Notes under the pieces: model-generated
What the model saw: the letters and a program-made list of their open reading frames with translations, nothing else
Told to the model about the DNA's origin: nothing
The model's database searches: none
Shown: piece by piece, positions 5,033 to 57,120 of the stretch
Layout: each line of letters starts with the position of its first letter
Numbering within the stretch: position 1 is the first letter of the stretch
Made by a program: the position numbers and the translations under genes
Source: an uncultured Candidatus Saccharibacteria bacterium
GTDB lineage: Bacteria > Patescibacteriota > Minisyncoccia > Phycocordibacterales > DATDWN01
Direction: 5' to 3'
DNA length: 64,000 bases
NCBI GenBank assembly: GCA_964428435.1
Contig: CAYRYA010000004.1
Location: 8,116 to 72,115, forward strand

Positions 5033-5050
5033 GAGCTGTATAATTATTGT

Positions 5051-7838: not shown

Positions 7839-7971
7839 ATAAAACATCCAAATTATGAACAATCCCATCGTCTAAAATTTAAAAATATTTCGCACCTTAC
7901 ACGTGTAAGGTTTGTCATATTTTGAAATTTTATACGCGGCCTAGTTCAAATTTGAATGTTTAACAAAAAAC

Positions 7972-8157: not shown

Positions 8158-8270
8158 TAAACACTGATTCAGGAAACATGATTAAGGATTAAAGAATAAA
8201 AGAACATTCAAAAACTCTTAAATCCCATTCATTAATCCAAAATCATTAATCAATAATCAATTTTAATAAC

Positions 8271-10728: not shown

Positions 10729-11334
10729 TTATTCCAGAATACCGTCTAAGTTTACGTCGTACAAAATCTCGTCCTGAACCAATCTATATGAGAGTATTTC
10801 TTCCGGTTTAAACCATAGTGCGATCTCCTTCTCTGCTTCATCCACTGTTCCTGATGCATGCACCAAGTTTCGCACTGAGCGACTGTCGGTGTCTGAAAGC
10901 TCATATGAGTCGAGGACAAAGTCTCCTCGAATCGTTCCAATATCAGAAGAAAGTGGCTCTGTCCCTCCGGTAATCTTTCGCACAATAGCTACTGCATGTG
11001 CTCCTTGCCATACGAGAGCTACTACAGGACCTGATGACATGTACTCCTTGAGTCTTCCGAGAATCTTTTGACTTGCTTCAATAGGATCTTCTGTTGGTGG
11101 AGTCAGTCCTTTACTGTGATAACTTTTAATCGTTTTCTCTCCCGCTTTTCGTTTCCATTCTGGATCAACAGTATAATGCTTTTCAACCATCTCTTCAGTT
11201 GGAATGAGCATTTTTGAACCTACCAGCTTCAGTCCGATTCGCTCGTACCGCTTGATAAGCTCCCCTATCAAACTTCGCTGTACTCCATCGGGTTTTATTA
11301 TCACCAACGTCTTCTCTTGTTTTGGATGTATCAT
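10729..11334 (-). CDS. ndk: nucleoside diphosphate kinase
   Basis: 201 aa; EKTLVIIKPDGVQRSLIGELIKRYERIGLKLVGSKM N-terminus typical of NDK, with an internal insertion. Confidence 0.8.
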   Translation of the reverse strand: MIHPKQEKTLVIIKPDGVQRSLIGELIKRYERIGLKLVGSKMLIPTEEMVEKHYTVDPEWKRKAGEKTIKSYHSKGLTPPTEDPIEASQKILGRLKEYMSSGPVVALVWQGAHAVAIVRKITGGTEPLSSDIGTIRGDFVLDSYELSDTDSRSVRNLVHASGTVDEAEKEIALWFKPEEILSYRLVQDEILYDVNLDGILE

Positions 11335-11381
11335 ATAGATTAAGGATTAGGGATTAATGATAAAGGAATAATGCGAGAAAA

Positions 11382-12149
11382 CTAACAAGTGAGAATTATC
11401 GGATCACCTTCGGTGATGGCGACTGTATGCTCCGCATGAGCCGCGATAGACTTATCTTTTGTTTTGTAAGTGTACCCGTCTTTTGCAAGCACTATTTTGT
11501 CCCCTCCGAGGGTAAGCATAGGCTCGATTGCTATTACCATACCAGGCACCAACTTCTCGCCCTGTCCTTTGTATCCTTCATTGGGCACATATGGATCTTC
11601 GTGTACCGCATAGCCCACCCCGTGGCCTGCCAGGCTCTCTGGAAGACCATACCCGAGTGAACGTGCAAATGAACCGATTGCATAGCTTATATCGCCAATA
11701 TGAGCCCCTCCGCGAGCCTCTTTGATACCTCGAGCAAGTGCCTCCTCTGTGTGAGCAATAAGCTTACGCTCTCGATCACCCGCTTCTCCCACGGCTACTG
11801 TGATAGCACTGTCAGTAATGAGACCTTTATGCGTGAGCCCGAGATCAAGTGTAACCACATCACCTTCCTTCAGAGTTTGTACATCTTCATTAGGAATACC
11901 GTGCACAATCTCATCATTAATAGATACACAGAGTGCTGCAGGATATGCCCGCTTAGCACCTCGTGGAGTATAGTGCAAAAATGCCCCTTTGTCTCCCCCT
12001 TCTTCGATGAGCTCTCGAGCCTTATCTTCGAGCTCTTGAGTACTTACCCCAGGTGCAACCATTTTTTTGAGTTCACGCAAAATATATGCATGGCGTGCAC
12101 CACCCTCTTTCATAATCTCTATTTCTTCTGGTTTTTTGATTCGAATCAT
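11382..12149 (-). CDS. map: methionine aminopeptidase type I
   Basis: MetAP-I motifs (DVVTLDLG, HGIPN, metal-binding D/H/E pattern); start set at MIRIKKPEE because the longer ORF N-terminus is a translation of the upstream repeat. Confidence 0.9.
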   Translation of the reverse strand: MIRIKKPEEIEIMKEGGARHAYILRELKKMVAPGVSTQELEDKARELIEEGGDKGAFLHYTPRGAKRAYPAALCVSINDEIVHGIPNEDVQTLKEGDVVTLDLGLTHKGLITDSAITVAVGEAGDRERKLIAHTEEALARGIKEARGGAHIGDISYAIGSFARSLGYGLPESLAGHGVGYAVHEDPYVPNEGYKGQGEKLVPGMVIAIEPMLTLGGDKIVLAKDGYTYKTKDKSIAAHAEHTVAITEGDPIILTC

Positions 12150-12248
12150 ATATTCATATACGAATATACGAATTGGATACTTACGAATGGATGCGAATGA
12201 ATTTATTCGTAACAATTCGTAGATGTGTATTATTCGTTAATTCGTATG
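12150..12248. repeat. TACGAAT/ATTCGTA palindromic intergenic element, copy 1 of 3
   Basis: Imperfect ~100-bp inverted repeat built from ACGAAT units on the left arm and ATTCG units on the right; near-identical copies at 14339-14462 and 18193-18325. Confidence 0.7.
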
Positions 12249-12832
12249 TTTAATTTATCCATTATCTCCTTATTCACCTCTTCAATCGTCTGCTCTCCGT
12301 TAATATCAAGCACTGTGTATCCCGGATTATCTCTAAAATACTCGATTGCTGAAACCACTTCTGTATCAAACCACTCTAACCTTTTTTTGATTTCTGACAA
12401 CTCATCATCAGACCGTCCTCGCTCAAGAGCTCGCGCCATGGACCACTCATTTGATGTGTTAATAATAATCACCACAACATTTTTTCGTTTGTAAAACTGT
12501 AATGCAGTATCGAGAATTGGTGATTCGTACCGACGACGACAGAGGCCGTCAAACACCAAATGCTCATCTCCTGTAAAATTCTCTACAAGAAAGCTCGTCC
12601 AGAGCCATACAGGCATAAACGGAGGCATCAGTCCTCCTGTCTCCATCACTTCTTTTGTGAGTCGAGCTGAATGGTTATCTTGGACAATAAAATCACGAAG
12701 CTTTTGCCCAGTCTCAAGATAGAGGCATTTACGACCCTCATCGTGAGTTTTTAAATACTCCATAAGAAGCTGTGCTTGTGTACCCTTTCCTGAACCCGCT
12801 CTTCCAAACAATACTATGGTTTGTGGTGTCAT
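12230..12832 (-). CDS. adk: adenylate kinase
   Basis: 200 aa; Walker A GRAGSGKGTQAQLL, NMP/LID regions; C-terminal codons overlap the repeat element. Confidence 0.9.
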   Translation of the reverse strand: MTPQTIVLFGRAGSGKGTQAQLLMEYLKTHDEGRKCLYLETGQKLRDFIVQDNHSARLTKEVMETGGLMPPFMPVWLWTSFLVENFTGDEHLVFDGLCRRRYESPILDTALQFYKRKNVVVIIINTSNEWSMARALERGRSDDELSEIKKRLEWFDTEVVSAIEYFRDNPGYTVLDINGEQTIEEVNKEIMDKLNIRINE

Positions 12833-12843
12833 GGCTATAGTAT

Positions 12844-12878
12844 AGTCGAAAGTCCATAAAGTCGAAAGCCCATAAAGC
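12844..12878. repeat. 9-bp-periodic GACTT/AAGTC array upstream of adk
   Basis: agtcgaaagtccataaagtcgaaagcccataaagc; member of a dispersed family (see findings). Confidence 0.55.
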
Positions 12879-13066
12879 TAAATACACAAAATCCCCTATT
12901 TCTAGGGGATTTTGTGTTTTGAGAAACTTTATTTAACCACGGACTTGAGTCGTTCAGATTTGAGGGTAGTTCTAGGCGGAAAGTGAAAAATATTTGTAGA
13001 CGTACTCGTTGTACGATGGAAAATATTTTTTGCTTTCCAACAACGAAATACCCCAAATGTGGACGA

Positions 13067-14338
13067 CTAGTACTCGCGAATAGAGACTTGGGCGTCGATT
13101 TTTTTGATCAGATCGATAACTACAGAAACCGCAATCAAGAGTGCCGTACCCCCCACTGAAATAGCAGTGATACCAGTCACACCTCGAATAATAAGCGGAA
13201 GAACTGCGATCACCCCGAGGAAGAGCGCACCGACAAGAGTCAGTCGTGTGAGTGTTTTTGCAATATGATCAGAGGTAGGGCTACCTGGACGTACACCGGG
13301 AATAAATGCTCCGTTTTTCTGAAGATTTTTTGAGATCTGATCTGGATCAAAGGTTACTGCTGTATAGAAGTATGTGAAGATAAACACAAGGAAGAAATAT
13401 GCGATTGCATACACCCATGAGTTTGAGATAAATGTATTCATTGCAGTTGCTACATTTTTAATTGCAGGATAATCAACATTTGCAAGGAATTGAGATATGA
13501 TTTGCGGGAACAACAATATTGCTGATCCGAAGATAATTGGCATAACACCAGCCTGGTTCATACGTAATGGAAGATAGGTAGATGTACCACCGTACACTTT
13601 CATGCCTCGTACTTGTTTTGCATATGTCACAGGAATTGGTCGTTCTGCCTCAGTGACCACTACAACAAGAACCACTACAACAAGAGCGATAATTGCAAAG
13701 AGTGCGTAGAGTGGAAGTTGCGCTGGATCAAATACGTATATAAGTTGAGAGAGAGCCATTGGAAGCTGAGATACGATACCTGCAAAAATAATCAATGACA
13801 CACCATTTCCAATACCATATTCAGTGATCAATTCACCAATCCACATCAACAACATTGAACCTGCAGTAATAACCGCAAGATTAACCATCAAGTCAAATGA
13901 TAACATTGATGCAATAACATTTTGAGACTCAAGAAGTTTAATCAAACTAAATCCTTGGATAAGTGCAAAAGGTATTGCAAGCATACGTCCATACTGAGCA
14001 AACTTTCGACGACCAGCATCCCCTTCTTCCTGATACATTTCTTTCAGACGTGAAGACATAACTGTGAGCAACTGCATAATAATAGATCCTGTGATATATG
14101 GACCAACACCAAGCATTACAATAGAAAGCTGTGAAAGACCACCTCCAGAGAACAAGTTAAGGAGTCCGAGAAATTCACTATTTGCAAACAAAGAAGCAAG
14201 TGCAGATTCATCTACACCAGGAATAGGGATGATAGCAAGAAAACGAAACACAACAAGTGCCCCAAGTGTAAACAAAATTCGTGTACGAAGTGCCTTGTCT
14301 TGTAATACGAGCCCGAATTTATAGAAAAAGTTTTTCAT
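13067..14338 (-). CDS. secY: preprotein translocase subunit SecY
   Basis: 423 aa, 10 TM helices, conserved SecY N-terminus and plug region. Confidence 0.95.
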   Translation of the reverse strand: MKNFFYKFGLVLQDKALRTRILFTLGALVVFRFLAIIPIPGVDESALASLFANSEFLGLLNLFSGGGLSQLSIVMLGVGPYITGSIIMQLLTVMSSRLKEMYQEEGDAGRRKFAQYGRMLAIPFALIQGFSLIKLLESQNVIASMLSFDLMVNLAVITAGSMLLMWIGELITEYGIGNGVSLIIFAGIVSQLPMALSQLIYVFDPAQLPLYALFAIIALVVVVLVVVVTEAERPIPVTYAKQVRGMKVYGGTSTYLPLRMNQAGVMPIIFGSAILLFPQIISQFLANVDYPAIKNVATAMNTFISNSWVYAIAYFFLVFIFTYFYTAVTFDPDQISKNLQKNGAFIPGVRPGSPTSDHIAKTLTRLTLVGALFLGVIAVLPLIIRGVTGITAISVGGTALLIAVSVVIDLIKKIDAQVSIREY

Positions 14339-14462
14339 GAAATTAATATACGAATATGCGAATATGCGAATTATGCGAATCTACGAATTAATACGAATGA
14401 ATGCTTTTGAATTTGTCTTATTCGTGGCAATTCGTAAGTTTTTCATTCGTATATTCGTATGT
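14339..14462. repeat. TACGAAT/ATTCGTA palindromic intergenic element, copy 2
   Basis: atacgaatatgcgaatatgcgaatt...attcgtggcaattcgtaag...attcgtatattcgtatg between secY and rplO. Confidence 0.7.
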
Positions 14463-14903
14463 CTATACTACCACTTTACCACCAATTGCCTCAATTTTGG
14501 CCTTAGCAGAAAGAGAGAGTGCGCATCCAGACACAGTAACTTTTTTAGTTATCTCACCAGTTGAAAGAATTTTTACCAAAGGTTTTTTACCGTACACTGT
14601 TGTAATTACCCCTTTTGCAACGAGAGTTGCTGGAGTTACTTTATCTCCATTTGAAAATGCATTAGAAATAGAACCAAGTGTAACTGGAACATATGCGTTC
14701 TGGATTGATGTGTTGATATTTACACCTCGTCCTCGAAGTTTAGGAACTCGTTTAATAAAATCTCGAAGTTCTGGTCTCTTTTTGTGACCTGCTCGAGCAT
14801 TCTGTCCTTTTGTTCCACGACCAGCCGTTTTAGCCTTCACCCCTCCTCGGCCGATTTGTCGTGACTTCTTATTTTTATGTGTTCGTTTAAGTGTATGTAA
14901 CAT
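14463..14903 (-). CDS. rplO: 50S ribosomal protein L15
   Basis: 146 aa; MLHTLKRTHKNKKSRQIGRGGVKAKTAGRGTKGQ typical L15 N-terminus. Confidence 0.9.
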   Translation of the reverse strand: MLHTLKRTHKNKKSRQIGRGGVKAKTAGRGTKGQNARAGHKKRPELRDFIKRVPKLRGRGVNINTSIQNAYVPVTLGSISNAFSNGDKVTPATLVAKGVITTVYGKKPLVKILSTGEITKKVTVSGCALSLSAKAKIEAIGGKVVV

Positions 14904-14912
14904 GGTAGTGTA

Positions 14913-15464
14913 TTATTTTGCTCGAAGTTGTGACAATGCCTTAATCGCAGCCTTTGCATTGTTTACTTTATTTTTACTTCGTGAAAAAAGTTTTGAACCA
15001 ACTTCTTTTACTCCCGCAAGCTCAAGTACTGTACGTACAGATGAACCTGCAAGAATTCCCTTTCCCGGTGCTCGCATGATAGACACCTGTGATCCAGAAA
15101 ACTTTGCAAACACCTCATGAGGAATTGAGTGATTCTTTGTAAGAGGAATCTTGATCATATTTTTCTTTGCATCACGTGCAGCTTTGTCGATTGCAAGTGG
15201 AGTATCAGTTGCTTTTCCTTGTCCTACTCCTACCTTACCTTTTCGATCACCTACAACAACAGCAACAGAAAAACTGAAACGTCGTCCTCCAGTTACCACT
15301 CGAGTTACACGTCGAATACTGATGATTTTTTGATCAAATTCTGGTTTTACCCGAGGCTCTCGAGAATCTCTTCGATCACGATTTGGTTTTCGTGCGCCTC
15401 GCTTATCTTTTGATGCATCAGCTACTGGAGCAGTCTGCGTATGTGATTTAATTTCTTCTGTCAT
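14913..15464 (-). CDS. rpsE: 30S ribosomal protein S5
   Basis: 183 aa; S5 dsRBD and C-terminal domain (RVTRVVTGGRRFSFSVAVVVGD...); immediately followed by rplO with no room for rpmD (L30). Confidence 0.9.
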   Translation of the reverse strand: MTEEIKSHTQTAPVADASKDKRGARKPNRDRRDSREPRVKPEFDQKIISIRRVTRVVTGGRRFSFSVAVVVGDRKGKVGVGQGKATDTPLAIDKAARDAKKNMIKIPLTKNHSIPHEVFAKFSGSQVSIMRAPGKGILAGSSVRTVLELAGVKEVGSKLFSRSKNKVNNAKAAIKALSQLRAK

Positions 15465-15475
15465 ACAAATGTATA

Positions 15476-15826
15476 TTAAAATATTAGTCCACCTTCACGA
15501 GCACCTTCTGCAACAGCTTTAATATTTCCTGTGTAGATAAAACCTCCTCGGTCAAACACAACAGTCTCAATATTTTTTGCTTTTGCTTTTGTAGCAATCT
15601 CACGACCAATAGCAAACGCCTTCTCAGAAAGAGTTTTACCTTTTACTGTTTTTGTGTGTGCAGAAACAAGCGTCATTCCTTTTGAATCGTCAATAAGCTG
15701 TGCTGTCACATGCTGATTTGACTTAAATACTGCCAATCGAGGACGAGCTTCTGTACCAGAAACTTTCGCTCTGATTCTGAGCTTTCGTCTGATTCGCTGT
15801 GTAGTTTTTGAAATATTTTTATTCAT
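15476..15826 (-). CDS. rplR: 50S ribosomal protein L18
   Basis: 116 aa; [29 protein letters not shown] typical L18. Confidence 0.9.
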
Positions 15827-15831
15827 AAAAA

Positions 15832-15922
15832 TTTTTAGATTAATGATTTTGGATTTTTGATTAATGAATGGGATTTTTCTTATTCTTTAATCTTTAATCT
15901 TTAATCTTGCTTCCTTAATCTT
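15832..15922. repeat. GATTAATGA...TTAATC 5'-UTR element (family 2), full copy
   Basis: gattaatgattttggatttttgattaatgaatgggatttttcttattctttaatctttaatctttaatctt between rplF and rplR. Confidence 0.7.
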
Positions 15923-15927
15923 GACCT

Positions 15928-16461
15928 TTACGCGGATTTCTTACCTTGCTTACGCTTGATCACTTCACCTTCATATCGAAGACCTTTACCTTTGTATGGC
16001 TCTGGTTTTTTCCAATCTCGAACCATTGCAGCAAATGCTCCCACCTCTTCTGTGTTTATTCCAGAAATAGTAATAACATTTTTCTCAGCTGTCACTTTTA
16101 GAGACGCAGGAATATCAATATGTACTGGATGTGAAAACCCAAGAGCAAGTACAAGCTGTGTACCTTTTACTTCAGATTTGTATCCGATACCTTCTAGAAT
16201 AAGTTTTTTAACAAATGGTGTATGCACACCTTTGATCATATTGGTAATATGTGACCCATATGTTCCCCACAATGCTCTATTTGCAATTGTTTCTTTTAAT
16301 GGTGCAAGAGTGATTGTTTCTGGAGTAATAGTAAGTGCAACCTGATCAGAAAAGTGTTTTGACAATGTACCCTGAGGACCTTTTACAGTGAAAAGACCTG
16401 AAGTAAATGTAACTTCTGTTCCCTTCGGTATGGTAATTATTTTTTTTCCTATACGTGACAT
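15928..16461 (-). CDS. rplF: 50S ribosomal protein L6
   Basis: 177 aa; MSRIGKKIITIPKGTEVTF typical L6. Confidence 0.9.
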   Translation of the reverse strand: MSRIGKKIITIPKGTEVTFTSGLFTVKGPQGTLSKHFSDQVALTITPETITLAPLKETIANRALWGTYGSHITNMIKGVHTPFVKKLILEGIGYKSEVKGTQLVLALGFSHPVHIDIPASLKVTAEKNVITISGINTEEVGAFAAMVRDWKKPEPYKGKGLRYEGEVIKRKQGKKSA

Positions 16462-16467
16462 GTTTTT

Positions 16468-16545
16468 TTGGATTAATGATTTTGGATTCTTGATTAATGA
16501 ATGGGATTTCTCTTATTCTTTAATCTTTAATCCTTAATCTTGTTT
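16468..16545. repeat. family 2 5'-UTR element, full copy
   Basis: ggattaatgattttggattcttgattaatgaatgggatttctcttattctttaatctttaatccttaatcttg between rpsH and rplF. Confidence 0.7.
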
Positions 16546-16551
16546 CTTACT

Positions 16552-16983
16552 CTACCAGAGTGTACATAACGCTTCTCCTCCGACCTTTTCTTTTCGAGCA
16601 ACCTCATCAGAAATCACTCCTTTTGGAGTTGATATAACCATAATACCGTAACCATTTTTTACTGGTCTGATTTCAGTTGCTTTGATATATACTCGCTTTG
16701 AACTTTTTGAAACTCGCTTTACTCCTCGAATCTTTGGTGATCCGTCTGATTCGTATGCAAGTGTTACCTCAATATACTTAATTACTTTTTTTCCTTTCTT
16801 TGTGGCACCTTTAATGAACCCTGCTTTTGCAAGTACATCAAGAATTGCCATCTTAAGTTTAGAGTACGACAACACAACAGTTTCCTTGCGGACCTGTCCT
16901 GCGTTGTATATCTCATTAATCATTGCTGCAATTGGATCTGTCATATTATTTCGTTGGGAGTATTTCAGGCCAAGAGGGCCCAA
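16552..16983 (-). CDS. rpsH: 30S ribosomal protein S8
   Basis: S8 signature (TDPIAAMINEIYNAGQVRKETV...). Confidence 0.9.
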   Translation of the reverse strand: MGPLGLKYSQRNNMTDPIAAMINEIYNAGQVRKETVVLSYSKLKMAILDVLAKAGFIKGATKKGKKVIKYIEVTLAYESDGSPKIRGVKRVSKSSKRVYIKATEIRPVKNGYGIMVISTPKGVISDEVARKEKVGGEALCTLW

Positions 16984-16986
16984 AAC

Positions 16987-17172
16987 TTACCACGATGATT
17001 TTTTAATTCCAGGGATTTTCCCTTCGTTGGCAAGTTCGCGGAAGCAGATACGGCAGAGATCAAAATCTCTCATATATCCATGCTTTCGACCACATCGAAA
17101 ACATCGGTTTACCTTCTTTGTAGTAAACTTAGCTTTCTTTAATGATCGTGCGATTACTGATGTTTTTGCCAT
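16987..17172 (-). CDS. rpsZ: 30S ribosomal protein S14 type Z (zinc-binding)
   Basis: 61 aa; [23 protein letters not shown] with CxxC...CxxC. Confidence 0.9.
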
Positions 17173-17226
17173 TGTTATTAATTTATACGAGCCTCATCCT
17201 AACAGGAAGTGCGGCCCAAGTCAAAC

Positions 17227-17799
17227 TTATTTTCTTTTAATTACCTTCACTTTTGGATACCCCTCATCCTTCTTAAATGGGAAACCAAGATGAGTAAGGA
17301 ACGCTTTTGTCTCAAGTGGGTTTGAAATATTTGTACCTACGGTTACCGCAAGTCCAAATACATCTTTAAGTTCCTCGTCTGCTGACTCAGGAAAAATAGT
17401 GTTTTCTTTAATCCCAAGAGTATAGTTACCCATTTCATCGATACCTTTTGCAGAGATACCACGGAAGTCTTTTGTTCGAGGAAGTGCAATATTTACAAGT
17501 CGTTCAAGGAAATCATACATTCGCTTCCCTCGGAGAGTAATCTGAATACCTACAGTGTCTCCTTGTCGAACCTTAAACGCAGCAACTGACTGTTTTGCGC
17601 CCTTTTTTACAGGTTTCTGTCCAGTAATATCAGCAAGTCTACTGTATGCATGCTCTATTTTTTTCTTATCTTTAAAAGATCCCACTCCAGCAGAAACAAC
17701 CACCTTTAAAATTTTTGGTGCCTGCATAGCATTTTTATACCCAAACTCCCCTTTGAGAGCTCCGTATGCTTTTTCTACTTTGTCTTTAATGTGTTCCAT
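17227..17799 (-). CDS. rplE: 50S ribosomal protein L5
   Basis: 190 aa; L5 conserved core (GDTVGIQITLRGKRMYDFLERLVNIALPR). Confidence 0.9.
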   Translation of the reverse strand: MEHIKDKVEKAYGALKGEFGYKNAMQAPKILKVVVSAGVGSFKDKKKIEHAYSRLADITGQKPVKKGAKQSVAAFKVRQGDTVGIQITLRGKRMYDFLERLVNIALPRTKDFRGISAKGIDEMGNYTLGIKENTIFPESADEELKDVFGLAVTVGTNISNPLETKAFLTHLGFPFKKDEGYPKVKVIKRK

Positions 17800-17808
17800 G
17801 TTATTTTT

Positions 17809-17886
17809 TTGGATTAATGATTTAAGATTTTGGATTAATGAATGGGATTTTTCTTATTCTTTAATCTTTAATCCTGATTCTTTAAT
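17809..17886. repeat. family 2 5'-UTR element, full copy
   Basis: ggattaatgatttaagattttggattaatgaatgggatttttcttattctttaatctttaatcctgattctttaatc between rplX and rplE. Confidence 0.7.
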
Positions 17887-18192
17887 CTATACTGTGTTTC
17901 CTGATTTCTGTGCCACTCGAACCTTTTTTCCGTCTATCACTTTCTTTGAGATTCGTGTACCTTTACCTGTCTTCGGATCTACAAGAAGGACGTTTGAGGC
18001 ATGTATAGGGAGATTTTTTTCAATAATCTGACCTTTTTCACCACCACGACGCGCTCGAACATGAGCTTTAACCACATTTACACCTGACACAAGCACTTTT
18101 CCTTCACGAGGAAGCACCCGAGCAATTGTACCTGTTTTGCCCTTATCTTTTCCTGTAATCACTATTACTTTGTCGTCTTTCTTAAGTTTCAT
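17887..18192 (-). CDS. rplX: 50S ribosomal protein L24
   Basis: 101 aa; KOW motif MKLKKDDKVIVITGKDKGKTG. Confidence 0.9.
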   Translation of the reverse strand: MKLKKDDKVIVITGKDKGKTGTIARVLPREGKVLVSGVNVVKAHVRARRGGEKGQIIEKNLPIHASNVLLVDPKTGKGTRISKKVIDGKKVRVAQKSGNTV

Positions 18193-18325
18193 TTGTTTTT
18201 ATATGATTTATGCTTTGATACGAATATACGAATTGGAAACTTACGAATAGATTCGAATGAATGCTTTTAATTTCTTATTCGTAACCATTCGCATCATTCG
18301 TACATTCGCATATTCGTATGTTCAT
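18193..18325. repeat. TACGAAT/ATTCGTA palindromic intergenic element, copy 3
   Basis: gatacgaatatacgaattggaaacttacgaatagattcgaatgaatg...attcgtaaccattcgcatcattcgtacattcgcatattcgtatg between rplN and rplX. Confidence 0.7.
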
Positions 18326-18697
18326 CTATACCACCTCTGGGGCGAGTGAGATAATCTTCTGATACCCCGCTTCTCCGATCTCTCGGGGGATTGGTCCAAA
18401 CACACGACCAGCTACTGGTTCCTTCTTTTCTTTTGAAACAATAACTACTGCATTCTCATCAAATCGAATATATGAACCATCCTTTCTTCGAAATGGAGCC
18501 TTTTGTCGAACCACTACAGCATAGAGCACGTCTTTCTTTTTTGCTCCTTTTCGTGGTTCTGCTTTTTGAACAGAAAGAACAACCATCTCTCCCAATCGTG
18601 CATATCGCTTCTTTGAACTTCCAAGTACTTTGAAAATTCGTCCGATTTTTGCTCCGGTGTTATCTGCGATTTTAACAATTGATTGTGGCTGGATCAT
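18326..18697 (-). CDS. rplN: 50S ribosomal protein L14
   Basis: 123 aa; MIQPQSIVKIADNTGAK typical L14. Confidence 0.9.
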   Translation of the reverse strand: MIQPQSIVKIADNTGAKIGRIFKVLGSSKKRYARLGEMVVLSVQKAEPRKGAKKKDVLYAVVVRQKAPFRRKDGSYIRFDENAVVIVSKEKKEPVAGRVFGPIPREIGEAGYQKIISLAPEVV

Positions 18698-18703
18698 ATA
18701 ATT

Positions 18704-18973
18704 TTATTTAGTTACAACAACAAAATGCTTATCTTTTGAAATTGGTCGAGTTTCTTTAATCTCTACTTTATCCCCTACTTTATGAGCATTTCCTACATCA
18801 TGAGCTTTGAAACGCTTACTGATTTGCATGAATTTACCATACTTTGGATGCTTTACAAATCGGTTTACGAGTACTACCACAGTATCTTTCATTTTGTCAG
18901 ATACAACAATACCAGTAAGGATTCGTCCTTGTTCTGATTTCTCTGTATGTGGTTGTATTTTTTTTGTTGCCAT
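18704..18973 (-). CDS. rpsQ: 30S ribosomal protein S17
   Basis: 89 aa; GIVVSDKMKDTVVVLVNRFVKHPKYGKF typical S17. Confidence 0.9.
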   Translation of the reverse strand: MATKKIQPHTEKSEQGRILTGIVVSDKMKDTVVVLVNRFVKHPKYGKFMQISKRFKAHDVGNAHKVGDKVEIKETRPISKDKHFVVVTK

Positions 18974-18975
18974 AC

Positions 18976-19159
18976 TATTTATTTTACGTTAATTGCAGTC
19001 AAAATTCGTGCGATATCCTTTCGGATTGCATATCCTTCTTTTATATTTTTAACCTTACTACCAGCAACAGAAAAACGAAAATTTCGAAGTGCCACTCGTT
19101 TTTCACCGAGAAGAGCTTTAAGTTCTTTTTCTGTTTTATTTTTAAAATCTTTCATAACT
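18976..19159 (-). CDS. rpmC: 50S ribosomal protein L29 (not in supplied ORF track because <60 aa)
   Basis: Own translation of minus strand: MKDFKNKTEKELKALLGEKRVALRNFRFSVAGSKVKNIKEGYAIRKDIARILTAINVK, 59 aa, in the expected rplP-rpmC-rpsQ position. Confidence 0.75.
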
Positions 19160-19164
19160 CTATA

Positions 19165-19581
19165 TTATCGTGCTACTACTTTAGATTTAATAGGAAGTTT
19201 TGTTCCCGCCTTTCGAAGTGCCTCTTTTGCAATCGCTTCAGTAACACCATCAATTTCAAAAATGATTCGTCCTGGGAGCACTGGAGCAACATATGCAAAC
19301 AAATCTCCTTTTCCTTTACCGAGTTTTACTTCGGCTGGTTTTCGAGTAATTGGCATATCAGGGAAAATTCGAATCCACACTTTTCCAGTTTTACCCATTG
19401 CTCGTGAAAGCACCTTTCGAGCAGCTTCAATCTGATTTGATCGAATACGTGCATCAGTAGTTGCTTTAAGCCCAAATGAACCAAACGCAAGTGTTGCGCC
19501 ACGTGTCGCTGTACCAATACGAGACGTATTTCGTCTCATGGTATGCCATTTTCTGTATTTTACTTTTTTAGGTAGCAACAT
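19165..19581 (-). CDS. rplP: 50S ribosomal protein L16
   Basis: 138 aa; MLLPKKVKYRKWHTMRRNTSRIGTATRG typical L16. Confidence 0.9.
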   Translation of the reverse strand: MLLPKKVKYRKWHTMRRNTSRIGTATRGATLAFGSFGLKATTDARIRSNQIEAARKVLSRAMGKTGKVWIRIFPDMPITRKPAEVKLGKGKGDLFAYVAPVLPGRIIFEIDGVTEAIAKEALRKAGTKLPIKSKVVAR

Positions 19582-19591
19582 ATACGTTTAG

Positions 19592-20248
19592 TTATTTAGC
19601 AAAGATTTCTCCCTTGTAAATCCACACTTTGATACCGATCGCTCCGTATGGAAGACGTGCAGGATATGCTGCATAATCTACATCAGCTCGAAGAGTTTGA
19701 AGTGGAATTCGACCTTTTTTCATTTTTTCCTGTCGCGCCATTGACGCACCTCCTAGACGACCTGAGAGTTCAATTTTCACTCCGAGTACATCTCGGTTCG
19801 CCATTACTTTTTCAATAATCTGCTTCCCTACTCGTCGGAAAGGCATACGTTTTTCAAGACCTTCTGCAATCATGTGTGCCACAATTGTTGCATTTGTTTC
19901 TGGAGATTTTACCTCTTTGATGTCGATTTTTACTTCACCACCTGACACAAGATTTTTCTTAGCCATGAATGCCAAAATTTCATCTCGAAGTTTTGTTGCA
20001 CCTTCACCTGATCGTCCGATGATAGCACCTGGTCGTGAAGTTTCGATAATAATTCGAAGCGCTTTTTCACTTCGTTCCATTTGGATGTCAGCTACATACT
20101 GACCTCGCATTTTTTTCTCAAGAAATTCACGAATCAACACATCACTCTTCAAGAATTCTTTGAATTTAGTTTTCACGCCAAACCATCGAGATTTCCAATC
20201 TCTAATGATTCCAAGTCTATGTGAATATGGGTGTACTGTGTGTGACAT
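19592..20248 (-). CDS. rpsC: 30S ribosomal protein S3
   Basis: 218 aa; KH domain and S3 C-terminal domain. Confidence 0.9.
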   Translation of the reverse strand: MSHTVHPYSHRLGIIRDWKSRWFGVKTKFKEFLKSDVLIREFLEKKMRGQYVADIQMERSEKALRIIIETSRPGAIIGRSGEGATKLRDEILAFMAKKNLVSGGEVKIDIKEVKSPETNATIVAHMIAEGLEKRMPFRRVGKQIIEKVMANRDVLGVKIELSGRLGGASMARQEKMKKGRIPLQTLRADVDYAAYPARLPYGAIGIKVWIYKGEIFAK

Positions 20249-20333
20249 GTTTGTTAATTGAAAGTTTAAAAATCAAAATTTAAAATATTTTCTCCTACTG
20301 TATTCTTAATTTTTAAATTTTGATTTGTCATTT

Positions 20334-20750
20334 TTATTTTTGCTTTTTTACTTTTGATTTAACTTCTTTTGCCTCTGCTTTTTCCTCCATTACTACCTTA
20401 GTCTTCTTTGCTTTTGGAAGTACTTCCTCGAGAGTAACAGAGATCATACTTGTTCGCTTTCGGATAGGGTGAGCTGATCCTCGAGCTGCAGGCATTCGTC
20501 GGTACAGAGTTTTGCCACTGTTTACTTCCACAGTTTTTACAACCAAGTTTTCTGTAGGCATTGATTGTGCTTTTGCGTTTGCAAGAGCTGATTCGATGAG
20601 CTTTCGGATCGGAGCTGAAGCTCGTTTCTCAGTAAACTGCATTGAAAGAATAGCGTCAGTTACCTTTTTACCACGCACAAGGTCAGCAACTACACGAACT
20701 TTTCGTGGAGACTGTCGAAGATTTGAAAGTGTAGCGGATGCTTTTGCCAT
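20334..20750 (-). CDS. rplV: 50S ribosomal protein L22
   Basis: 138 aa; L22 core plus K/E-rich C-terminal tail. Confidence 0.9.
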   Translation of the reverse strand: MAKASATLSNLRQSPRKVRVVADLVRGKKVTDAILSMQFTEKRASAPIRKLIESALANAKAQSMPTENLVVKTVEVNSGKTLYRRMPAARGSAHPIRKRTSMISVTLEEVLPKAKKTKVVMEEKAEAKEVKSKVKKQK

Positions 20751-20759
20751 GGTATTAGA

Positions 20760-21104
20760 TTATTTTTTCTTAGCGTCAGGAGCTGCTTTAGATGCTTTTG
20801 CAGCAGCAATTTCAGACTCTTTCTTTTTAATTTCGAGCTCTTTCTGCATTTTACCTCCGTGTTTAAGGAATTTCTTTGTAGGAGAAAATTCGCCCAATCG
20901 GTGACCTACCATATCTTCAGTTACGAGAACTTCAATATGAGTCTTGCCGTTATGTACACCAAAGTTGAATCCTACCATTTCAGGCGAGATTACACATGCT
21001 CGTGACCATGTTTTAATAACCCCAGTTTCAATAGGTTTTTTACCCTCAATCTTTTTGAGAACTCGTGGGTCTACATATGGTCCTTTGTGTGATGATCGTG
21101 TCAT
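20760..21104 (-). CDS. rpsS: 30S ribosomal protein S19
   Basis: 114 aa; [19 protein letters not shown]...NGKTHIEV typical S19, with K/A-rich C-terminal extension. Confidence 0.9.
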
Positions 21105-21234
21105 GAAAAATTGATGAAAAATACTCTTTATTTTGCAAGAGTGTTAAATACCCTAAACAAAAACGAGATGCAAGAGGAAAACTCTTACGTGCGCTCTATA
21201 CTATACAAAATGCGACGATATGTCAAACGGATTA

Positions 21235-21275
21235 GAGTCCATCAAGTCAAAAGTCCTTAAAGTCTGTAAAGTCGG
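21235..21275. repeat. 9-bp-periodic GACTT/AAGTC array immediately upstream of rpsS promoter
   Basis: gagtccatcaagtcaaaagtccttaaagtctgtaaagtcgg; on the minus strand followed by TTGACA-N15-TATAGTATA. Confidence 0.55.
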
Positions 21276-21362
21276 ATATTTAAGGGTAATTTTGGGCAAA
21301 ATTAAAGAGCGACCCATCCCCGCAATGGAGACTGTCGCTCTTACAGAAAACTGATTTTTCAT

Positions 21363-21713
21363 CTAGTGATAGTGAGTTACCCCTGGAAAATTCCCAGTAT
21401 TTACCCTTCTCCATTCCGAGAACCCCATCAACCAGCTTCCGTCAGGTTCACAATCCTTATAAACCTGTTCCATCTCACAGAGCTTACAGTACCTGAAATG
21501 TTGGAGGATGGGAGCACCACCGTATTCATTCCGATGTTTTTCAGTACAATACCTGAGACTGAACCTCTTGCAGTCGAGACAGAAGTACCTGCTAGACCCA
21601 AAAATAACACCAATCACAGAATAAGTTATGTACCCCCCTAAGCTCATTGATACAAGGAACCCAAACAGTACATACACTAAAAGCGCTAACTTAACTACAA
21701 AACCTTTCAACAT
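21363..21713 (-). CDS. small membrane-anchored Cys-rich protein, hypothetical (inserted between rplB and rpsS)
   Basis: 116 aa; two N-terminal hydrophobic helices then CLDC...C...CKLC...C; own TTGACA-like promoter after the rplB terminator and its own downstream hairpin. Confidence 0.45.
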   Translation of the reverse strand: MLKGFVVKLALLVYVLFGFLVSMSLGGYITYSVIGVIFGSSRYFCLDCKRFSLRYCTEKHRNEYGGAPILQHFRYCKLCEMEQVYKDCEPDGSWLMGFSEWRRVNTGNFPGVTHYH

Positions 21714-21756
21714 GTCACTCTCCTGGTGATTAAGCTACCACACAAAGTATTATTGT

Positions 21757-21797
21757 CAAAAAACACCCCTATCTTTTTATAAGGGGTGCTTTTTGTT
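21757..21797 (-). terminator. terminator immediately after rplB
   Basis: GCACCCCTTATAAAAAGATAGGGGTGTTTTTTG on minus strand, 1 nt after rplB stop. Confidence 0.6.
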
Positions 21798-22640
21798 TTA
21801 CTTTCTCTTTCCAACTTTTCGTCGAGAGACGATGTGTTTATTAGAATATTTCTTAGGAGTTCGAGTCTTCTGTCCCTTACCTGTCGGTCGTCCGTATACA
21901 GACACTGCTCGACGTCGTCCTCGGCCTTGTCGGCCTTCTCCACCTCCGTATGGGTGGTCAACTGGGTTCTGAGCAGTACCTCGCACTGTAGGGCGGATAC
22001 CGAGCCAGCGTGAGCGTCCTGCTTTACCGAGGTTTACGAGTCGGTTTTCATCGTTTGCTACTTCACCAACTGTTGCAAATGCAGTATCTTTCACCTTTCG
22101 CACTTCAGATGAAGGCATTTTGAGGTCAACGTATCCTGCGTCTTTCGCAATGAGCTCAATGTAACTTCCACCAGATCGAGCAAGCTTTGCTCCTCCTTGT
22201 GGTTTCACCTCTACGTTGTAGATAAATGTACCAATAGTAATATTTTTGAGTGGGAGTCGATTTCCTGTTTTTACTTCTGCATTTTCTGCAGTGATATATG
22301 TATCACCTACTTTAGCTCCTTTAGGAAGAAGGATGTATCGCTTCTCACCATCTTTGTATACTGCAAGACCGATAAATCCCGATCGGTTTGGATCGTATTC
22401 AACAGTTTTAACTGTGTAAGGAATATTGATTTTGTTGTATACGAAATCAATTTCTCGGAAAAGTCGTTTATGTCCTGCCCCTTTATGTCGAGTAGTAATC
22501 ACACCCTGGTTATTTCGTCCAACTGATCGTTTAAAACCTCGTGTGAGTGACTTTACAGGCTTTGCGGTAGTCAAAACTGCACCGTAGTTGATCGATGTCA
22601 TGTTTCGACGTGATGGGGTTGTTGGTTGGTATCTCTTCAT
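21798..22640 (-). CDS. rplB: 50S ribosomal protein L2
   Basis: 280 aa; L2 conserved core and GGGEGR motif. Confidence 0.95.
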   Translation of the reverse strand: MKRYQPTTPSRRNMTSINYGAVLTTAKPVKSLTRGFKRSVGRNNQGVITTRHKGAGHKRLFREIDFVYNKINIPYTVKTVEYDPNRSGFIGLAVYKDGEKRYILLPKGAKVGDTYITAENAEVKTGNRLPLKNITIGTFIYNVEVKPQGGAKLARSGGSYIELIAKDAGYVDLKMPSSEVRKVKDTAFATVGEVANDENRLVNLGKAGRSRWLGIRPTVRGTAQNPVDHPYGGGEGRQGRGRRRAVSVYGRPTGKGQKTRTPKKYSNKHIVSRRKVGKRK

Positions 22641-22736
22641 AAATGTAAAATTGAAATCTCAAAAATAAAAATGTTGTATGCTTAATTTTTTAACTCTGCT
22701 TTGTCATTTTTCATTTTCATTTTTGATTTTTGATTT

Positions 22737-23018
22737 TTAAATGACTTCTATCGTCTCACCTTTCTTAAGGTATACATATGCTTTCTTAAGACCTTTTTTG
22801 AAACCAACTTTTCCTCGTACAAATACTTTTTTCTGAGGGTTAGTCACCGTAGTCACCTTTACAGGAGATACTTTGTAGATTTCTTTTACTGCTTTGATCA
22901 CATCTGTCTTTGTTGCGTGTTTTGGAATCTCAAATGTATACACTGAAGACTCTGACTTAAGCGCAGCTTTTTCTGTGATTCGTGGTCGCAATAATACTGT
23001 TTTAAGGTCTGCTTTCAT
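22737..23018 (-). CDS. rplW: 50S ribosomal protein L23
   Basis: 93 aa; L23 pattern. Confidence 0.85.
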   Translation of the reverse strand: MKADLKTVLLRPRITEKAALKSESSVYTFEIPKHATKTDVIKAVKEIYKVSPVKVTTVTNPQKKVFVRGKVGFKKGLKKAYVYLKKGETIEVI

Positions 23019-23027
23019 ATTATTTTA

Positions 23028-23690
23028 TTATGCAAGTTTAGAGCTAACTGTTGCGAGAGACTCTGCTGGATTCTCGATCACAATGTATTTATATTTCATC
23101 AAATCAACAGGGTTGATATTTCGGATTTCATCTACTTCAACATTACTGAAGTTACCAAAACTCTTCTTTGTAGTTACACTGTCTTTTGAAAGCGCAATCC
23201 ATGCCGAATTTTTCTTTTTAGAAAGAATGTCTGTAAAACCACCAATTTTTGAGAATGATGCAAGTGTTCCTTTTGCATCTTTTGCTTTTGGAGCAGAGAA
23301 ATTCAAAGAGTCTACAAAAAGGATTTGTCCTTTCTTAAATTTAGCTGAAAGGATAGTATACAAAGCTTTTGCCTTCATTTTCTTGTTTACCTTTCGAGTA
23401 TAGTCTTTTTCGTTTCGAGGACCATGAGTTACACCTCCACCTACCCAGATAGGAGATCGAGTAGAACCGTGTCGAGCGCGACCTGTTCCCTTTTGTTTCC
23501 AAGGTTTCTTTCCACCTCCAGATACTTCCCCTCGGTTTTTAGTGTGAGCTACTGGTGTTCGAGCACTTGATTCCATAGATACAACAACCTGGTGAACCAA
23601 GTCAGCATTCCACTTAAGACCAAACACGCTCTCTGGGAGAGTTATTGTTCCTGCTGTTTTACCTGTTTGTGTGTAAATATTTGCTTCCAT
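23028..23690 (-). CDS. rplD: 50S ribosomal protein L4
   Basis: Start set at MEANIYTQTGK; the longer ORF N-terminus (MPNATDFTDLKDW...) is a translation of the GACTT repeat array. Confidence 0.85.
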   Translation of the reverse strand: MEANIYTQTGKTAGTITLPESVFGLKWNADLVHQVVVSMESSARTPVAHTKNRGEVSGGGKKPWKQKGTGRARHGSTRSPIWVGGGVTHGPRNEKDYTRKVNKKMKAKALYTILSAKFKKGQILFVDSLNFSAPKAKDAKGTLASFSKIGGFTDILSKKKNSAWIALSKDSVTTKKSFGNFSNVEVDEIRNINPVDLMKYKYIVIENPAESLATVSSKLA

Positions 23691-23702
23691 GATTTTAAAA
23701 TT

Positions 23703-23797
23703 AGTCATAAAGTCTATCCAGTCCTTCAAGTCCGTAAAGTCGGTTGCGTTTGGCATCTGACTTGATGGACTTTCAACTTTATGAACTTTTGACTTCT
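23703..23797. repeat. inverted pair of 9-bp-periodic GACTT/AAGTC arrays between rplC and rplD
   Basis: cataaagtctatccagtccttcaagtccgtaaagtcgg ... ctgacttgatggactttcaactttatgaacttttgacttc; the two halves are mutual reverse complements. Confidence 0.6.
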
Positions 23798-25757: not shown

Positions 25758-25836
25758 ATTTGAGTTTACTTTAGACAATCACACTCTGAGGATTTTTCGC
25801 TCAGGTCGCGGATAAAATTGGAAAAAGGATCGGAGA

Positions 25837-25890
25837 TGTACTTAATGGTACATTGAGAACCTTTTTTCAATTTTAAACGATGAGATGAGT
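25837..25890 (+). repeat. conserved ~55-70-nt motif, copy 1 (second copy in clpP 5'-UTR)
   Basis: gtacttaatggtacattgagaaccttttttcaattttaaacgatgagatgagtg versus 59411-59464; conserved GUAC-loop-GUAC hairpin with different loops. Confidence 0.5.
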
Positions 25891-25914
25891 GAAAAAGACC
25901 AGAGCAGACTTACT

Positions 25915-30909: not shown

Positions 30910-30969
30910 GTGTACATTGTATCTCGGTAGTGACCACAGACGCAATGAAAAAAAATTTCGTATGTGTAT

Positions 30970-33376: not shown

Positions 33377-33425
33377 AAAATAATGATTAAAGATTAATGA
33401 TAAAAGATTAAAGAATAATACAGAA
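33377..33425. repeat. family 2 5'-UTR element, partial, upstream of fusA
   Basis: aatgattaaagattaatgataaaagattaaagaataat; on minus strand TCATTAATC..TTAATCATTATTTT-ATG. Confidence 0.5.
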
Positions 33426-34532: not shown

Positions 34533-34540
34533 GTTTTGTT

Positions 34541-34617
34541 TGGATTGATGATTATAGATTAAGGATTAATGAAAGGGATTTCTCTGATTCTTTAATCTTT
34601 AATCCTGTATCTTTAAT
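34541..34617. repeat. family 2 5'-UTR element, full copy
   Basis: ggattgatgattatagattaaggattaatgaaagggatttctctgattctttaatctttaatcctgtatctttaatc between rpsL and rpsG. Confidence 0.7.
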
Positions 34618-43535: not shown

Positions 43536-43898
43536 ATGAATGACTGTATATTTTGCAAAATTATAAACGGAGAGATTCCTTCGTATAAAGTATACGAGGA
43601 TGACAATTTTTTCGCCTTTTTGGATATTCACCCTCAGTCCCCGGGGCATGTACAGGTGATACCAAAAAAGCATCATCGGTGGGTGTGGCAGGTACCAAAT
43701 GTCGGCGAATACTTTGAAGTTGTGCGGAAAATCGCCCTCGCTCAACAAAGAGCATTTGACACCGAATGGATACTTTCAAAAATTGTTGGTGACGAAGTAG
43801 AACATGCCCACATCTGGGTATTTCCAAACAAAGAAGTTTCTGGGAATCCAAAGGATTTTGAAGGAAATTTAAAAAAAGTTAAAGAAAATATACTTTAG
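43536..43898 (+). CDS. HIT family (histidine triad) hydrolase
   Basis: [43 protein letters not shown] and histidine triad [10 protein letters not shown]; start at MNDCIFCKI. Confidence 0.8.
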
Positions 43899-43940
43899 TC
43901 TATAAAGTCCTTAAAGTCGAAAGTCCATCAAGTCAAATAC
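43899..43940. repeat. 9-bp-periodic AAGTC array
   Basis: ctataaagtccttaaagtcgaaagtccatcaagtcaaatac. Confidence 0.55.
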
Positions 43941-43944
43941 AAAT

Positions 43945-44292
43945 TTATTCAAGGGATTTAATGAGACCTGACAATATTCTTAATATCTCCACTGATTCTT
44001 TATAGAGAGGTTCGAAGTTATTTTTAGAGATATATTTTAATTCAAAAGCAAGATCAAGCATTGACCTCACCTCACCCACTGAACCTTTAGTTATAAACAG
44101 AAACTTCTTAAACTCCTTATCTCCTCTTCTCTCGTATCCTTCTGCAATATTATTCATTACTGAAACAGATGCTCTTTGAATTTGATCTTTAAATCCATAA
44201 TCCTTTAGAAGTCTGAAGCTTGTGTAGACGCCTATACTCAGAGCTTTTGCCTTCTGCCATCCTATAATATCTTCGAACTTTTCAATCTTCAT
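43945..44292 (-). CDS. four-helix-bundle protein (23S rRNA intervening-sequence protein family)
   Basis: 115 aa; ...NNIAEGYERRGDKEFKKFLFITKGSVGEVRSMLDLA... matches the four-helix-bundle family. Confidence 0.65.
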   Translation of the reverse strand: MKIEKFEDIIGWQKAKALSIGVYTSFRLLKDYGFKDQIQRASVSVMNNIAEGYERRGDKEFKKFLFITKGSVGEVRSMLDLAFELKYISKNNFEPLYKESVEILRILSGLIKSLE

Positions 44293-44301
44293 ATTTTTGA
44301 A

Positions 44302-44346
44302 TTGACTTGATGGACTTTACAGACTTGATGGACTTTTGACTTTGAC
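44302..44346. repeat. 9-bp-periodic GACTT array (inverted relative to 43899-43940)
   Basis: ttgacttgatggactttacagacttgatggacttttgactttgac; read-through gives pgk an artificial C-terminal tail. Confidence 0.55.
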
Positions 44347-46320: not shown

Positions 46321-46348
46321 GCAAATATAGTAACATAAAGCCACCCGA

Positions 46349-55222: not shown

Positions 55223-55286
55223 TGCATATGCTGCTTTTTTCCTGTATTATTCTTTAATCCTTAATCATTAATCTAATATCTATCCC

Positions 55287-57007: not shown

Positions 57008-57120
57008 AAGACACCAACTCGAAAATGAGCAAAAACCCTTCTTATGAAGGGTTTTTGCTTGCTTTATCTTGAAAAATTCGTATCATTCGTATATTAAAAC
57101 TAACCGTAATACTCACCAGT

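Follow-up and report, generated by a model that had tools for sequence, protein, structure and literature searches.

Unit-array hairpins between ribosomal protein genes of a patescibacterial genome: putative gene-less relatives of selfish cassettes

The window described here, that is, the whole stretch of 64,000 nucleotides that was analysed, comes from contig CAYRYA010000004.1 (assembly GCA_964428435.1) of an uncultured Candidatus Saccharibacteria bacterium, and its minus-strand genes from about 8.6 to 25.4 kb make up the S10-spc-alpha cluster of ribosomal protein (r-protein) genes. Three spacers in this cluster, adk-map, rplO-secY and rplN-rplX, are completely occupied by imperfect palindromes of 100-130 bp built of ACGAAT and ATTCGT units, which we call family A. 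What are these palindromes, and how could they have come to lie inside an essential operon? It seems rather probable, though by no means certain, that they belong, as miniatures without a gene, to a class of selfish 'tandem-unit hairpin' cassettes that sit within host operons and are transcribed through. This reading leans on their hairpin form, on the arms that they share with gene-bearing cassettes, on their turnover among relatives, on the co-directionality of the cassettes with neighbouring genes, and on the absence of promoter or terminator signals within them.

Palindromes in the ribosomal protein spacers

An earlier note on this DNA had pointed to palindromes at the three junctions and to a fragment upstream of tig, and all four are present where it placed them (Table 1); the identities of map, adk, secY, rplO, rplX, rplN, ndk and tig were confirmed with NCBIfam. 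That the arms consist of ACGAAT and ATTCG units, as the note had claimed, is borne out by counting the units against shuffled sequences and by Tandem Repeats Finder (TRF). ATTCGTA occurs 28 times in the window, where 8.8 occurrences are expected, a count as high as which was seen in none of 100 shuffles, and 20 of the 28 matches fall in the four reported sites. Clusters of at least three ACGAAT or ATTCGT units exist in the window only at the three family A sites and never in the shuffles, and TRF finds arrays of period 8 and period 17 there. The copies had also been described as near-identical, which is an overstatement: their pairwise identity is 65-71%, and what they have in common is the unit, the architecture and the loop module, not the full sequence. 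The third element lies at the proposed site, but its hairpin proper is shorter than had been thought, 18193-18214 being an A-rich unpaired leader before the rplX ATG. As for the tig fragment, it is a half-copy placed between an intrinsic terminator and the tig ATG.

When the transcribed strand is folded, each family A element gives one long imperfect hairpin between two cistrons, as anticipated in the note, for which the mRNA strand has a dG of -23 to -35 kcal/mol and a z between -4.2 and -4.9; the opposite strand gives a z of about -5.4, and none of 200 shuffles folds as well. The loops are 6-25 nt long and hold no open reading frame (ORF), and therefore the two arms come together as one imperfect hairpin of 40-50 bp. 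Neither a terminator-like site nor a minus-strand promoter-like site was found within the three elements, and the 30 promoter-like matches in the region are no more than chance would give (31.8 expected). An identity as intrinsic terminator or sigma-70 promoter was rejected on this ground, and the r-protein operon is therefore supposed to be transcribed through the elements, which would then form part of the r-protein mRNA.

Such elements systematically corrupt gene calls. The adk-map element stops one base short of the true map ATG (12149), and the ORF call of map starts with 22 false codons, its family match beginning only at residue 23-24. At the other end of the same element, the C-terminal NIRINE of adk and the stop codon behind it are encoded by two outer ACGAAT units. 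Both effects had been foreseen in the note, and to them are now added the false N-termini of rplD and fusA (Table 1).

Gene-bearing cassettes and turnover among relatives

Copies of the arms were sought by scanning one genome per species for ATTCGTATATTCGTAT, and the family proved to be dispersed over many genomes. At least 118 loci matched, 80 of them with titles; among these 80 titled loci listed, 36 are from Patescibacteria of many classes, 22 are from Bacteroidota, and some are from Omnitrophota and others. About 280 chance matches are expected in the whole collection, and therefore isolated single matches mean little. Among the matches listed, nearly all are intergenic and fit tightly between ORFs, and a palindrome recurs that consists of CTACGAATTACGAAT-n3-TACGAATATACGAAT, a loop of 0-50 nt and ATTCGTATATTCGTAT-n3-ATTCGTAATTCGTAG; its Zambryski/Nomura/Saccharibacteria variety ends in GTTTATCT. 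Many single-arm copies, ATTCGTA..ATTCGTAG, end 3-10 nt before an ATG in these other genomes. The loop module ACGAATAAGAAA..GCATTCATTCG is common to family A copies that lie at separate loci and in separate genomes, from which it follows that whole elements have been copied. With regard to a phage vector, none of 63 viral contigs with the 16-mer holds a hairpin-type copy.

Do the same arms ever enclose a gene? In two Bacteroidota loci (L053 and L060), TACGAAT and ATTCGTA arrays bracket a gene for a protein of 134-154 amino acids (aa) of the family PF13366 PDDEXK_3 ('GxxExxY'). Four further GxxExxY loci were chosen by protein identity alone, the repeat being disregarded, and in every one of them the gene has TACGAAT arrays close upstream and ATTCGTA arrays close downstream; these four cassettes are wedged between co-directional housekeeping genes (atoD-atoA, secA-ychF, ffh-pyrF and a CFA-synthase cluster). 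Searching the fetched loci with a hidden Markov model brought more array-flanked GxxExxY cassettes, in L070 (Parcubacteria) and L098. In a Chryseobacterium metagenome-assembled genome (MAG; L029, 4435-4922) the GxxExxY gene is frameshifted and split into two fragments in overlapping frames, still bracketed by ACGAAT/ATTCGT arrays, and this locus may be a cassette in decay, on the way to a hairpin without an ORF.

The window itself contains a gene-bearing cassette with another unit, at 43897-44343. Its gene (43945-44292) encodes a four-helix-bundle protein of the family PF05635, 23S_rRNA_IVP (E 2e-31; IVP hereafter). In sense order the cassette reads 5 AAGTC units, 11 nt, the IVP gene, 13 nt and 4-5 GACTT units, and its arms are paired in the minimum free energy fold. 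Among 59 distinct metagenomic IVP loci for which both flanks were available, 36 have at least two AAAGTY upstream together with at least two RACTTT downstream, and the flank duplex has a z of -2 or lower in 51 of the 59 (median -4.3), against a median of 0.0 for neighbouring control ORFs. Rare IVP cassettes use other units (GTACCGAG, AACGTC, GTGTGAAAG...), and since the two flanks are always complementary whatever the unit, the arms co-vary. The neighbours of IVP cassettes are co-directional in 43 of 44 cases upstream and in 43 of 48 downstream. Unit and cargo also go together, A-type arrays being found in 1 of 80 IVP loci and D-type arrays, that is, those of the AAGTC/GACTT unit, in 0 of 6 GxxExxY loci. 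The arms accompany the ORF to many genomic sites, and thus they belong to the element, not to the target. IVP genes are known inside rRNA insertions of the candidate phyla radiation (CPR) and wedged into cas operons (PMC11270868; PMC3936711), and a literature search for papers that link GxxExxY or IVP genes to inverted unit arrays found none. Small ORFs beside family D arrays in the window (21363-21713, 53528-53824 and 61950-62270) were tried as IVP relatives and rejected.

How stable, then, is an element at a given junction? SecY has matches at 100%, 96%, 92%, 90%, 88% and 83% identity in MAGs named Zambryskibacteria or Minisyncoccota, which places the window in Candidatus Zambryskibacteria (Patescibacteria/Parcubacteria). 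The window was compared with five syntenic loci of relatives (L001-L005). At rplO-secY, a family A element is present in the window and in two relatives, L001 and L003; the other three, L002, L004 and L005, have 4 bp only. At rplN-rplX, the window and L003 carry family A, L001 has a hairpin of ACAGTC/GACT units, L002 has an element of GACCTAT units, the hairpin of L004 is 115 nt long and of yet another type, and L005 has 9 bp, so that this one junction shows four unrelated hairpin elements and one empty site across six genomes. At rpsH-rplF, the window and L003 have a family B hairpin (see below), L001 has a different family, and L002 is empty. L001 and L003 share with the window the adk tail NIRINE and its stop, which L002 and L004 lack; the idea that L001 and L003 keep only the 3′ half of the adk-map element was rejected, its 5′ arm sitting within the adk tail. 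With the same junctions vacant or taken by unrelated hairpins in relatives at 83-96% SecY identity, turnover must be fast, and the unit hairpins are thus unstable, insertion-like DNA and not conserved operon regulators. Orthologous copies differ in spacers, loop and unit number, the window copy having extra inner units at adk-map and an extra ATTCGCAT unit at rplO-secY, and the ACGAAT cores are invariant. The orthologous copies are 85-90% identical, and the flanking genes are 57-72% identical at their third codon positions; since unrelated copies made of the same unit already share 65-71%, this difference is not regarded as proving selection.

By contrast, a hairpin between rplE and rpsN (17173-17226, minus strand, loop CCUGUUAGGAU) shows how a conserved RNA element looks in this operon. 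It is kept in all four relatives with the spacer read (L001, L002, L004 and L005), with changes on both sides of the stem, has no Rfam match at E<=1, and is probably a genuine r-protein regulatory or binding structure. There is also a second, unrelated type of near-perfect hairpin of about 115 nt, with the motifs CTTCCAAATTT...ATCTCATCG.CTAAAATT // AATTTTAT.CGCGA.CT...AAATTTGAAAG. It occurs at 12948-13068, 7851-7936, 25822-25894 and 59395-59470 of the window and, among relatives, at 2896-3010 of L004, at 5041-5160 and 2939-3055 of L005, and in the rplF-rplR spacers of L002, L003 and L004. This type, which has no Rfam match, also moves between r-protein junctions in relatives. In L005, the 83% relative, genes for an RVT_1 reverse transcriptase and bAvd stand immediately after secY (11299-12694), where the window has hairpins; the pair suggests a diversity-generating retroelement (DGR), and bAvd is homologous to the four-helix-bundle proteins of intervening sequences (IVS).

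Further unit families and other features of the window

The family described in the earlier note is real, but it is one of at least four unit families in the window that have the same architecture, a 5′ array of short units, a loop, and a 3′ array of the complementary unit. The units are ACGAAT/ATTCGT in family A, GATTAAAG/TTAATC in family B (GATTAA), AAATCAAAA/TTTTGATTT in family C, and AAGTC/GACTT in family D. The array periods given by TRF for the window families are 7-9 nt, and the loop module GAATAAGAAA...CATTCATT is common to families A and B. From rpsJ to ndk, 12 of the 24 junctions hold such an element. The genes tig, ppa, fusA, adk and ndk each have a single arm directly before their start codon, often immediately past an intrinsic terminator, and arrays abut the ATGs of secY and map as well. 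Upstream of these genes no Shine-Dalgarno (SD) sequence was seen, and the leaders are A/U-rich. All five full hairpins of family B have one orientation relative to transcription, the plus-strand copy included; their folds are 8-11 kcal/mol weaker on the mRNA strand than on the antisense strand, mismatches being A.C on the former and G.U on the latter.

Table 1. Positions of unit-array elements in the window
Feature	Position	Strand	Remarks
Family A element, adk-map junction	12150..12250	minus	Hairpin 12157-12248
Outer 5′ arm of the adk-map element, AACATACGAATTAACGAATAA	12250-12230		Encodes the last six adk codons and stop
Family A element, rplO-secY	14339..14462	minus	Whole spacer; 4-6 ACGAAT units, loop AAGACAAATTCAAAAGCATTC, 4-6 ATTCG(T/C) units
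Family A element, rplN-rplX spacer	18193..18325	minus	Hairpin 18215-18320
Family A single-arm array, two ATTCGTAT units (ATTCGTATCATTCGTATATT, 57076-57095)	57075..57095	plus	26 nt before tig ATG
Family B hairpin, rplR-rplF	15827..15927	minus	GATTAAAG/TTAATC; loop module GAATAAGAAA..CATTCATT as in family A
Family B hairpin, rplF-rpsH	16462..16551	minus	
Family B hairpin, rplE-rplX	17800..17886	minus	
Family B hairpin, rpsL-rpsG	34533..34617	minus	
Family B hairpin, rpmI-rplT	8158..8270	plus-strand genes	Same orientation to transcription as minus-strand copies
Family B single-arm array, TTAATC units	11335..11381	minus	Abuts ndk ATG
Family B single-arm array	55247..55286	plus	After terminator; abuts ppa ATG
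Family B single-arm array	33377..33420	minus	Abuts true fusA ATG (33376); long ORF call falsely extended through array
Family C hairpin, rpsC-rplV	20249..20333	minus	AAATCAAAA/TTTTGATTT
Family C hairpin, rplB-rplW	22641..22736	minus	
Family D ORF-less hairpin, rplC-rplD	23700..23796	minus	False N-terminal extension of rplD ORF
Family D single-arm array, GACTTTATGGACTTTC units	12833..12886	minus	After secY terminator; abuts adk ATG
Family D cassette with 23S_rRNA_IVP gene	43897..44343	minus	Gene 44292-43945, 115 aa

Some of the neighbouring signals deserve mention. A strong intrinsic terminator follows secY (12833-12917, minus strand), and adk starts 6 nt past a TATACT box (CGACTATACTATAGCCATG) that is kept in L001, L002 and L004; this arrangement suggests that the adk mRNA is leaderless or nearly so, with the -35 position lying in a family D unit. 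Between rplB and rpsS (21105-21797, minus strand), the S10 operon is interrupted by a strong intrinsic terminator and a family D single arm, and the interval also contains a 116-aa ORF without a family match, which varies in relatives or is a different one there, and a conserved TTGACA-17-TAGTAT promoter before rpsS. Elsewhere in the window, a perfect 56-bp palindrome (28-nt arms without a spacer) lies at 46347-46402, between tpiA and the upstream gene of 492 aa, and a tandem duplication of 72 nt (81% matches; 30070-30213) is a repeat internal to the coding sequence of a 1134-aa ORF (27574-30978). The gene for tmRNA (3148-3558; RF00023, 64.7 bits) adjoins smpB and ftsH, the short ORF calls that overlap it being spurious. 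It is the only Rfam match of the window at the gathering threshold, and nothing relevant was found even at E<=1 in 11500-23500.

The nature of the elements and what it would mean

If the palindromes are indeed gene-less cassettes, how would such an element live? A full cassette consists of a small ORF between two arrays of 7-9 nt units, the second array being inverted and built of the unit complementary to that of the first; the cargo is a PD-(D/E)XK 'GxxExxY' protein with the TACGAAT unit or a four-helix-bundle '23S rRNA IVS protein' with the AAAGTY unit. It sits in a short spacer between co-directional host genes and depends on host read-through transcription. The three window elements would have lost the ORF, or never had it, and we infer loss from a cassette of the GxxExxY type. 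Their stem of 40-50 bp would probably be cut by RNase III in the RNA, by analogy with the stems of 23S IVSs; both flanking cistrons would survive the cut unharmed, and the 3′ arm and the A-rich stretch would serve as leader of the downstream gene that has no SD. Elements whose cutting leaves the cistrons intact would be neutral, and thus could build up in an essential operon. As to their means of spread, the PD-(D/E)XK cargo is a candidate nuclease.

Known elements resemble them in part. Correia/NEMIS elements of Neisseria, ERIC/IRU elements of enterobacteria, and REP (repetitive extragenic palindromic)/BIME sequences are about 100-150 bp long, have inverted ends, are inserted between operon genes, and are transcribed as hairpins. 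Such co-transcribed miniature inverted-repeat transposable elements (MITEs) can be cut by RNase III or RNase E or can stabilise the upstream mRNA, their sites are polymorphic among strains, and they possess defined terminal inverted repeats and target-site duplications, or a RAYT or insertion sequence parent. The present elements differ in that their arms are tandem units and their apparent parents are small-gene cassettes without a recognisable transposase. The suggestion of the earlier note that they are MITE- or REP-like DNA thus holds for their mobile or unstable behaviour and not for the identity itself: inverted arms are present as in MITEs, but the ends are shared with PD-(D/E)XK (GxxExxY) cassettes and not with a known transposase, and no transposase was seen in the window. 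A REP or REPIN identity was rejected, because a GTAG head is missing, the arms being tandem ACGAAT units, and because no RAYT gene is among the scanned ORFs; a Y1 transposase is also missing from the scanned window ORFs, the genome being incomplete. The classical MITE was rejected as well, with no target-site duplication seen when filled and empty rplO-secY and rplN-rplX sites were compared and no transposase parent found among the window ORFs scanned.

The IVSs in the 23S rRNA of Leptospira, Coxiella and Xanthomonas are alike in having a stem of long terminal inverted repeats, tandem heptamers that vary in copy number and stand just before the ORF, and sense insertion in a highly transcribed unit; they are viewed as selfish and are excised by RNase III (PMC4990558), and the IVP cassette of the window encodes the same protein family. 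In Coxiella, the number of heptamers varies among strains, the ORF is S23p, and RNase III excises within the stem (PMC4990558); excision is thus known there, whereas cleavage is a prediction by analogy here. Unlike IVSs, family A elements have arms made wholly of tandem units, and the ACGAAT unit goes with nuclease-fold cargo of the GxxExxY type; they lack an ORF and lie in mRNA operons, between protein-coding genes and not in an rRNA helix, for which reason an identity as IVS proper was rejected for this family. Direct repeats of the heptamer TAACTGA, intergenic and of unknown function, occur in Beggiatoaceae, Cyanobacteria and Bacteroidetes (MacGregor 2015, PMC4679880). These too are tandem 7-nt units, often placed a few nt before starts without SD and inside r-protein operons, with a patchy spread across phyla, no known vector, and unit-number indels among strains. 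They differ in the unit, in being direct (169 direct sets against 1 indirect) where inverted hairpin arrays are found here, and in that no link to GxxExxY or IVP is reported there. A literature search for the arm sequences found no paper, and no description was found of unit-array hairpins in Patescibacteria operons or of the linkage of units to GxxExxY and IVP, though literature beyond that searched could exist.

Of the rival readings, the strongest takes the arrays for functional leaders, in which the 3′ arm (AUUCGUA, UUAAUC or GACUUU repeats) would recruit ribosomes or a unit-specific RNA-binding protein and the inverted 5′ arm would mask the leader, so as to make a translational switch. 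The single arms at the starts of tig, ppa, fusA, adk and ndk fit such a role, as do the many ATTCGTA..ATTCGTAG arrays that stop 3-10 nt short of an ATG in other genomes and the lack of visible SD sequences upstream of these genes. The ACGAAT cores, invariant in orthologues and conserved across phyla, hint at sequence-specific recognition or function rather than junk, and for the TAACTGA repeats, which are placed alike, r-protein operons included, the same hypothesis has been proposed (MacGregor 2015, PMC4679880). On the other hand, a gene that has an array in one genome can be without it in a close relative and have another unit in a third genome, and at least four unit families in one genome would require several cognate factors; the orientation to neighbouring genes is mixed across genomes, and arrays also follow stop codons where no start lies downstream. 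We therefore regard the leader role as unlikely, while its supporting facts, namely the single arms and the invariant cores, count against the derivation from selfish cassettes. So do several others: the missing target-site duplication; the scan of 30 window ORFs, most of the genome being unseen, in which no gene for a transposase or for RNase III was found; and the fact that only one gene-bearing ACGAAT cassette was seen in Patescibacteria. Further, the antisense strand gives the more stable fold, by about 10 kcal/mol, in five of six window hairpins, no strand bias exists among 21 family A hairpins between co-directional genes across genomes (12 against 9) or among 58 IVP stems (32 against 25, p=0.6), and the transcribed strand of stems has no excess of G.U over A.C.

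The stems thus carry no signal of selection on the RNA strand, and therefore pairing may persist by a DNA-level process or by youth. An action of the elements at the DNA level, as cruciforms or as protein-binding sites for recombination, nucleoid organisation or replication, with the RNA hairpin incidental, would suit stems that are almost fully Watson-Crick without strand asymmetry and a unit sequence conserved across phyla; it is nevertheless distinctly improbable, since about 95% of cassette ORFs are co-directional with their neighbours, which points to a transcription-level logic, and the sites are restricted to inter-cistronic spacers. Could each array simply have expanded on the spot, by replication slippage of heptamers and hairpin-templated repair, independently at every site and without mobility or any link to small genes? 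Unit number does vary between orthologous copies at rplO-secY and adk-map, and heptamer repeats are known as slippage products (Mrazek 2007, as cited in PMC4679880), but local expansion would not be expected to give a common non-repeat loop at different loci and in different genomes, unrelated families at one junction, or a 30-nt arm consensus that spans phyla and accompanies a specific ORF, and we hold it to be improbable. The position at operon junctions and the significant folding bring to mind conserved cis-regulatory RNAs of the r-protein operon, for example attenuators or protein-binding sites for autoregulation. However, the elements are not conserved in relatives with 83-92% SecY identity, they have no Rfam match even at E<=1, their antisense folds are as good or better, and the truly conserved rplE-rpsN hairpin serves as a counter-example, so that the comparative data largely refute this explanation and leave it hardly probable at all.

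With gene-less cassettes as the preferred reading, one may go a step further and imagine one hitherto unrecognised class of operon-hitchhiking mobile elements in Patescibacteria, Bacteroidota and other phyla, whose cargo, either a GxxExxY PD-(D/E)XK nuclease or a four-helix-bundle IVS protein related to the Avd of DGRs, would recognise its own units (TACGAAT or AAAGTY), the ORF-less hairpins being non-autonomous copies or homing sites. This extension is tentative, and we consider it possible at most. If it were true, it would unify the 23S rRNA IVSs, the cross-phylum heptamer repeats and two large 'hypothetical' protein families. Even the narrower reading, if true, would mean that half of the spacers in an essential r-protein operon of a reduced-genome CPR bacterium hold tolerated selfish hairpins, and it would account for the abundant, uncharacterised GxxExxY and '23S rRNA IVS / four-helix-bundle' genes as cargo that hairpin cassettes carry along on host transcripts. 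It would also provide testable hypotheses for the biology of rRNA IVSs, for the heptamer repeats found at gene starts across phyla, and for how mRNAs without SD sequences are processed and begin to be translated.

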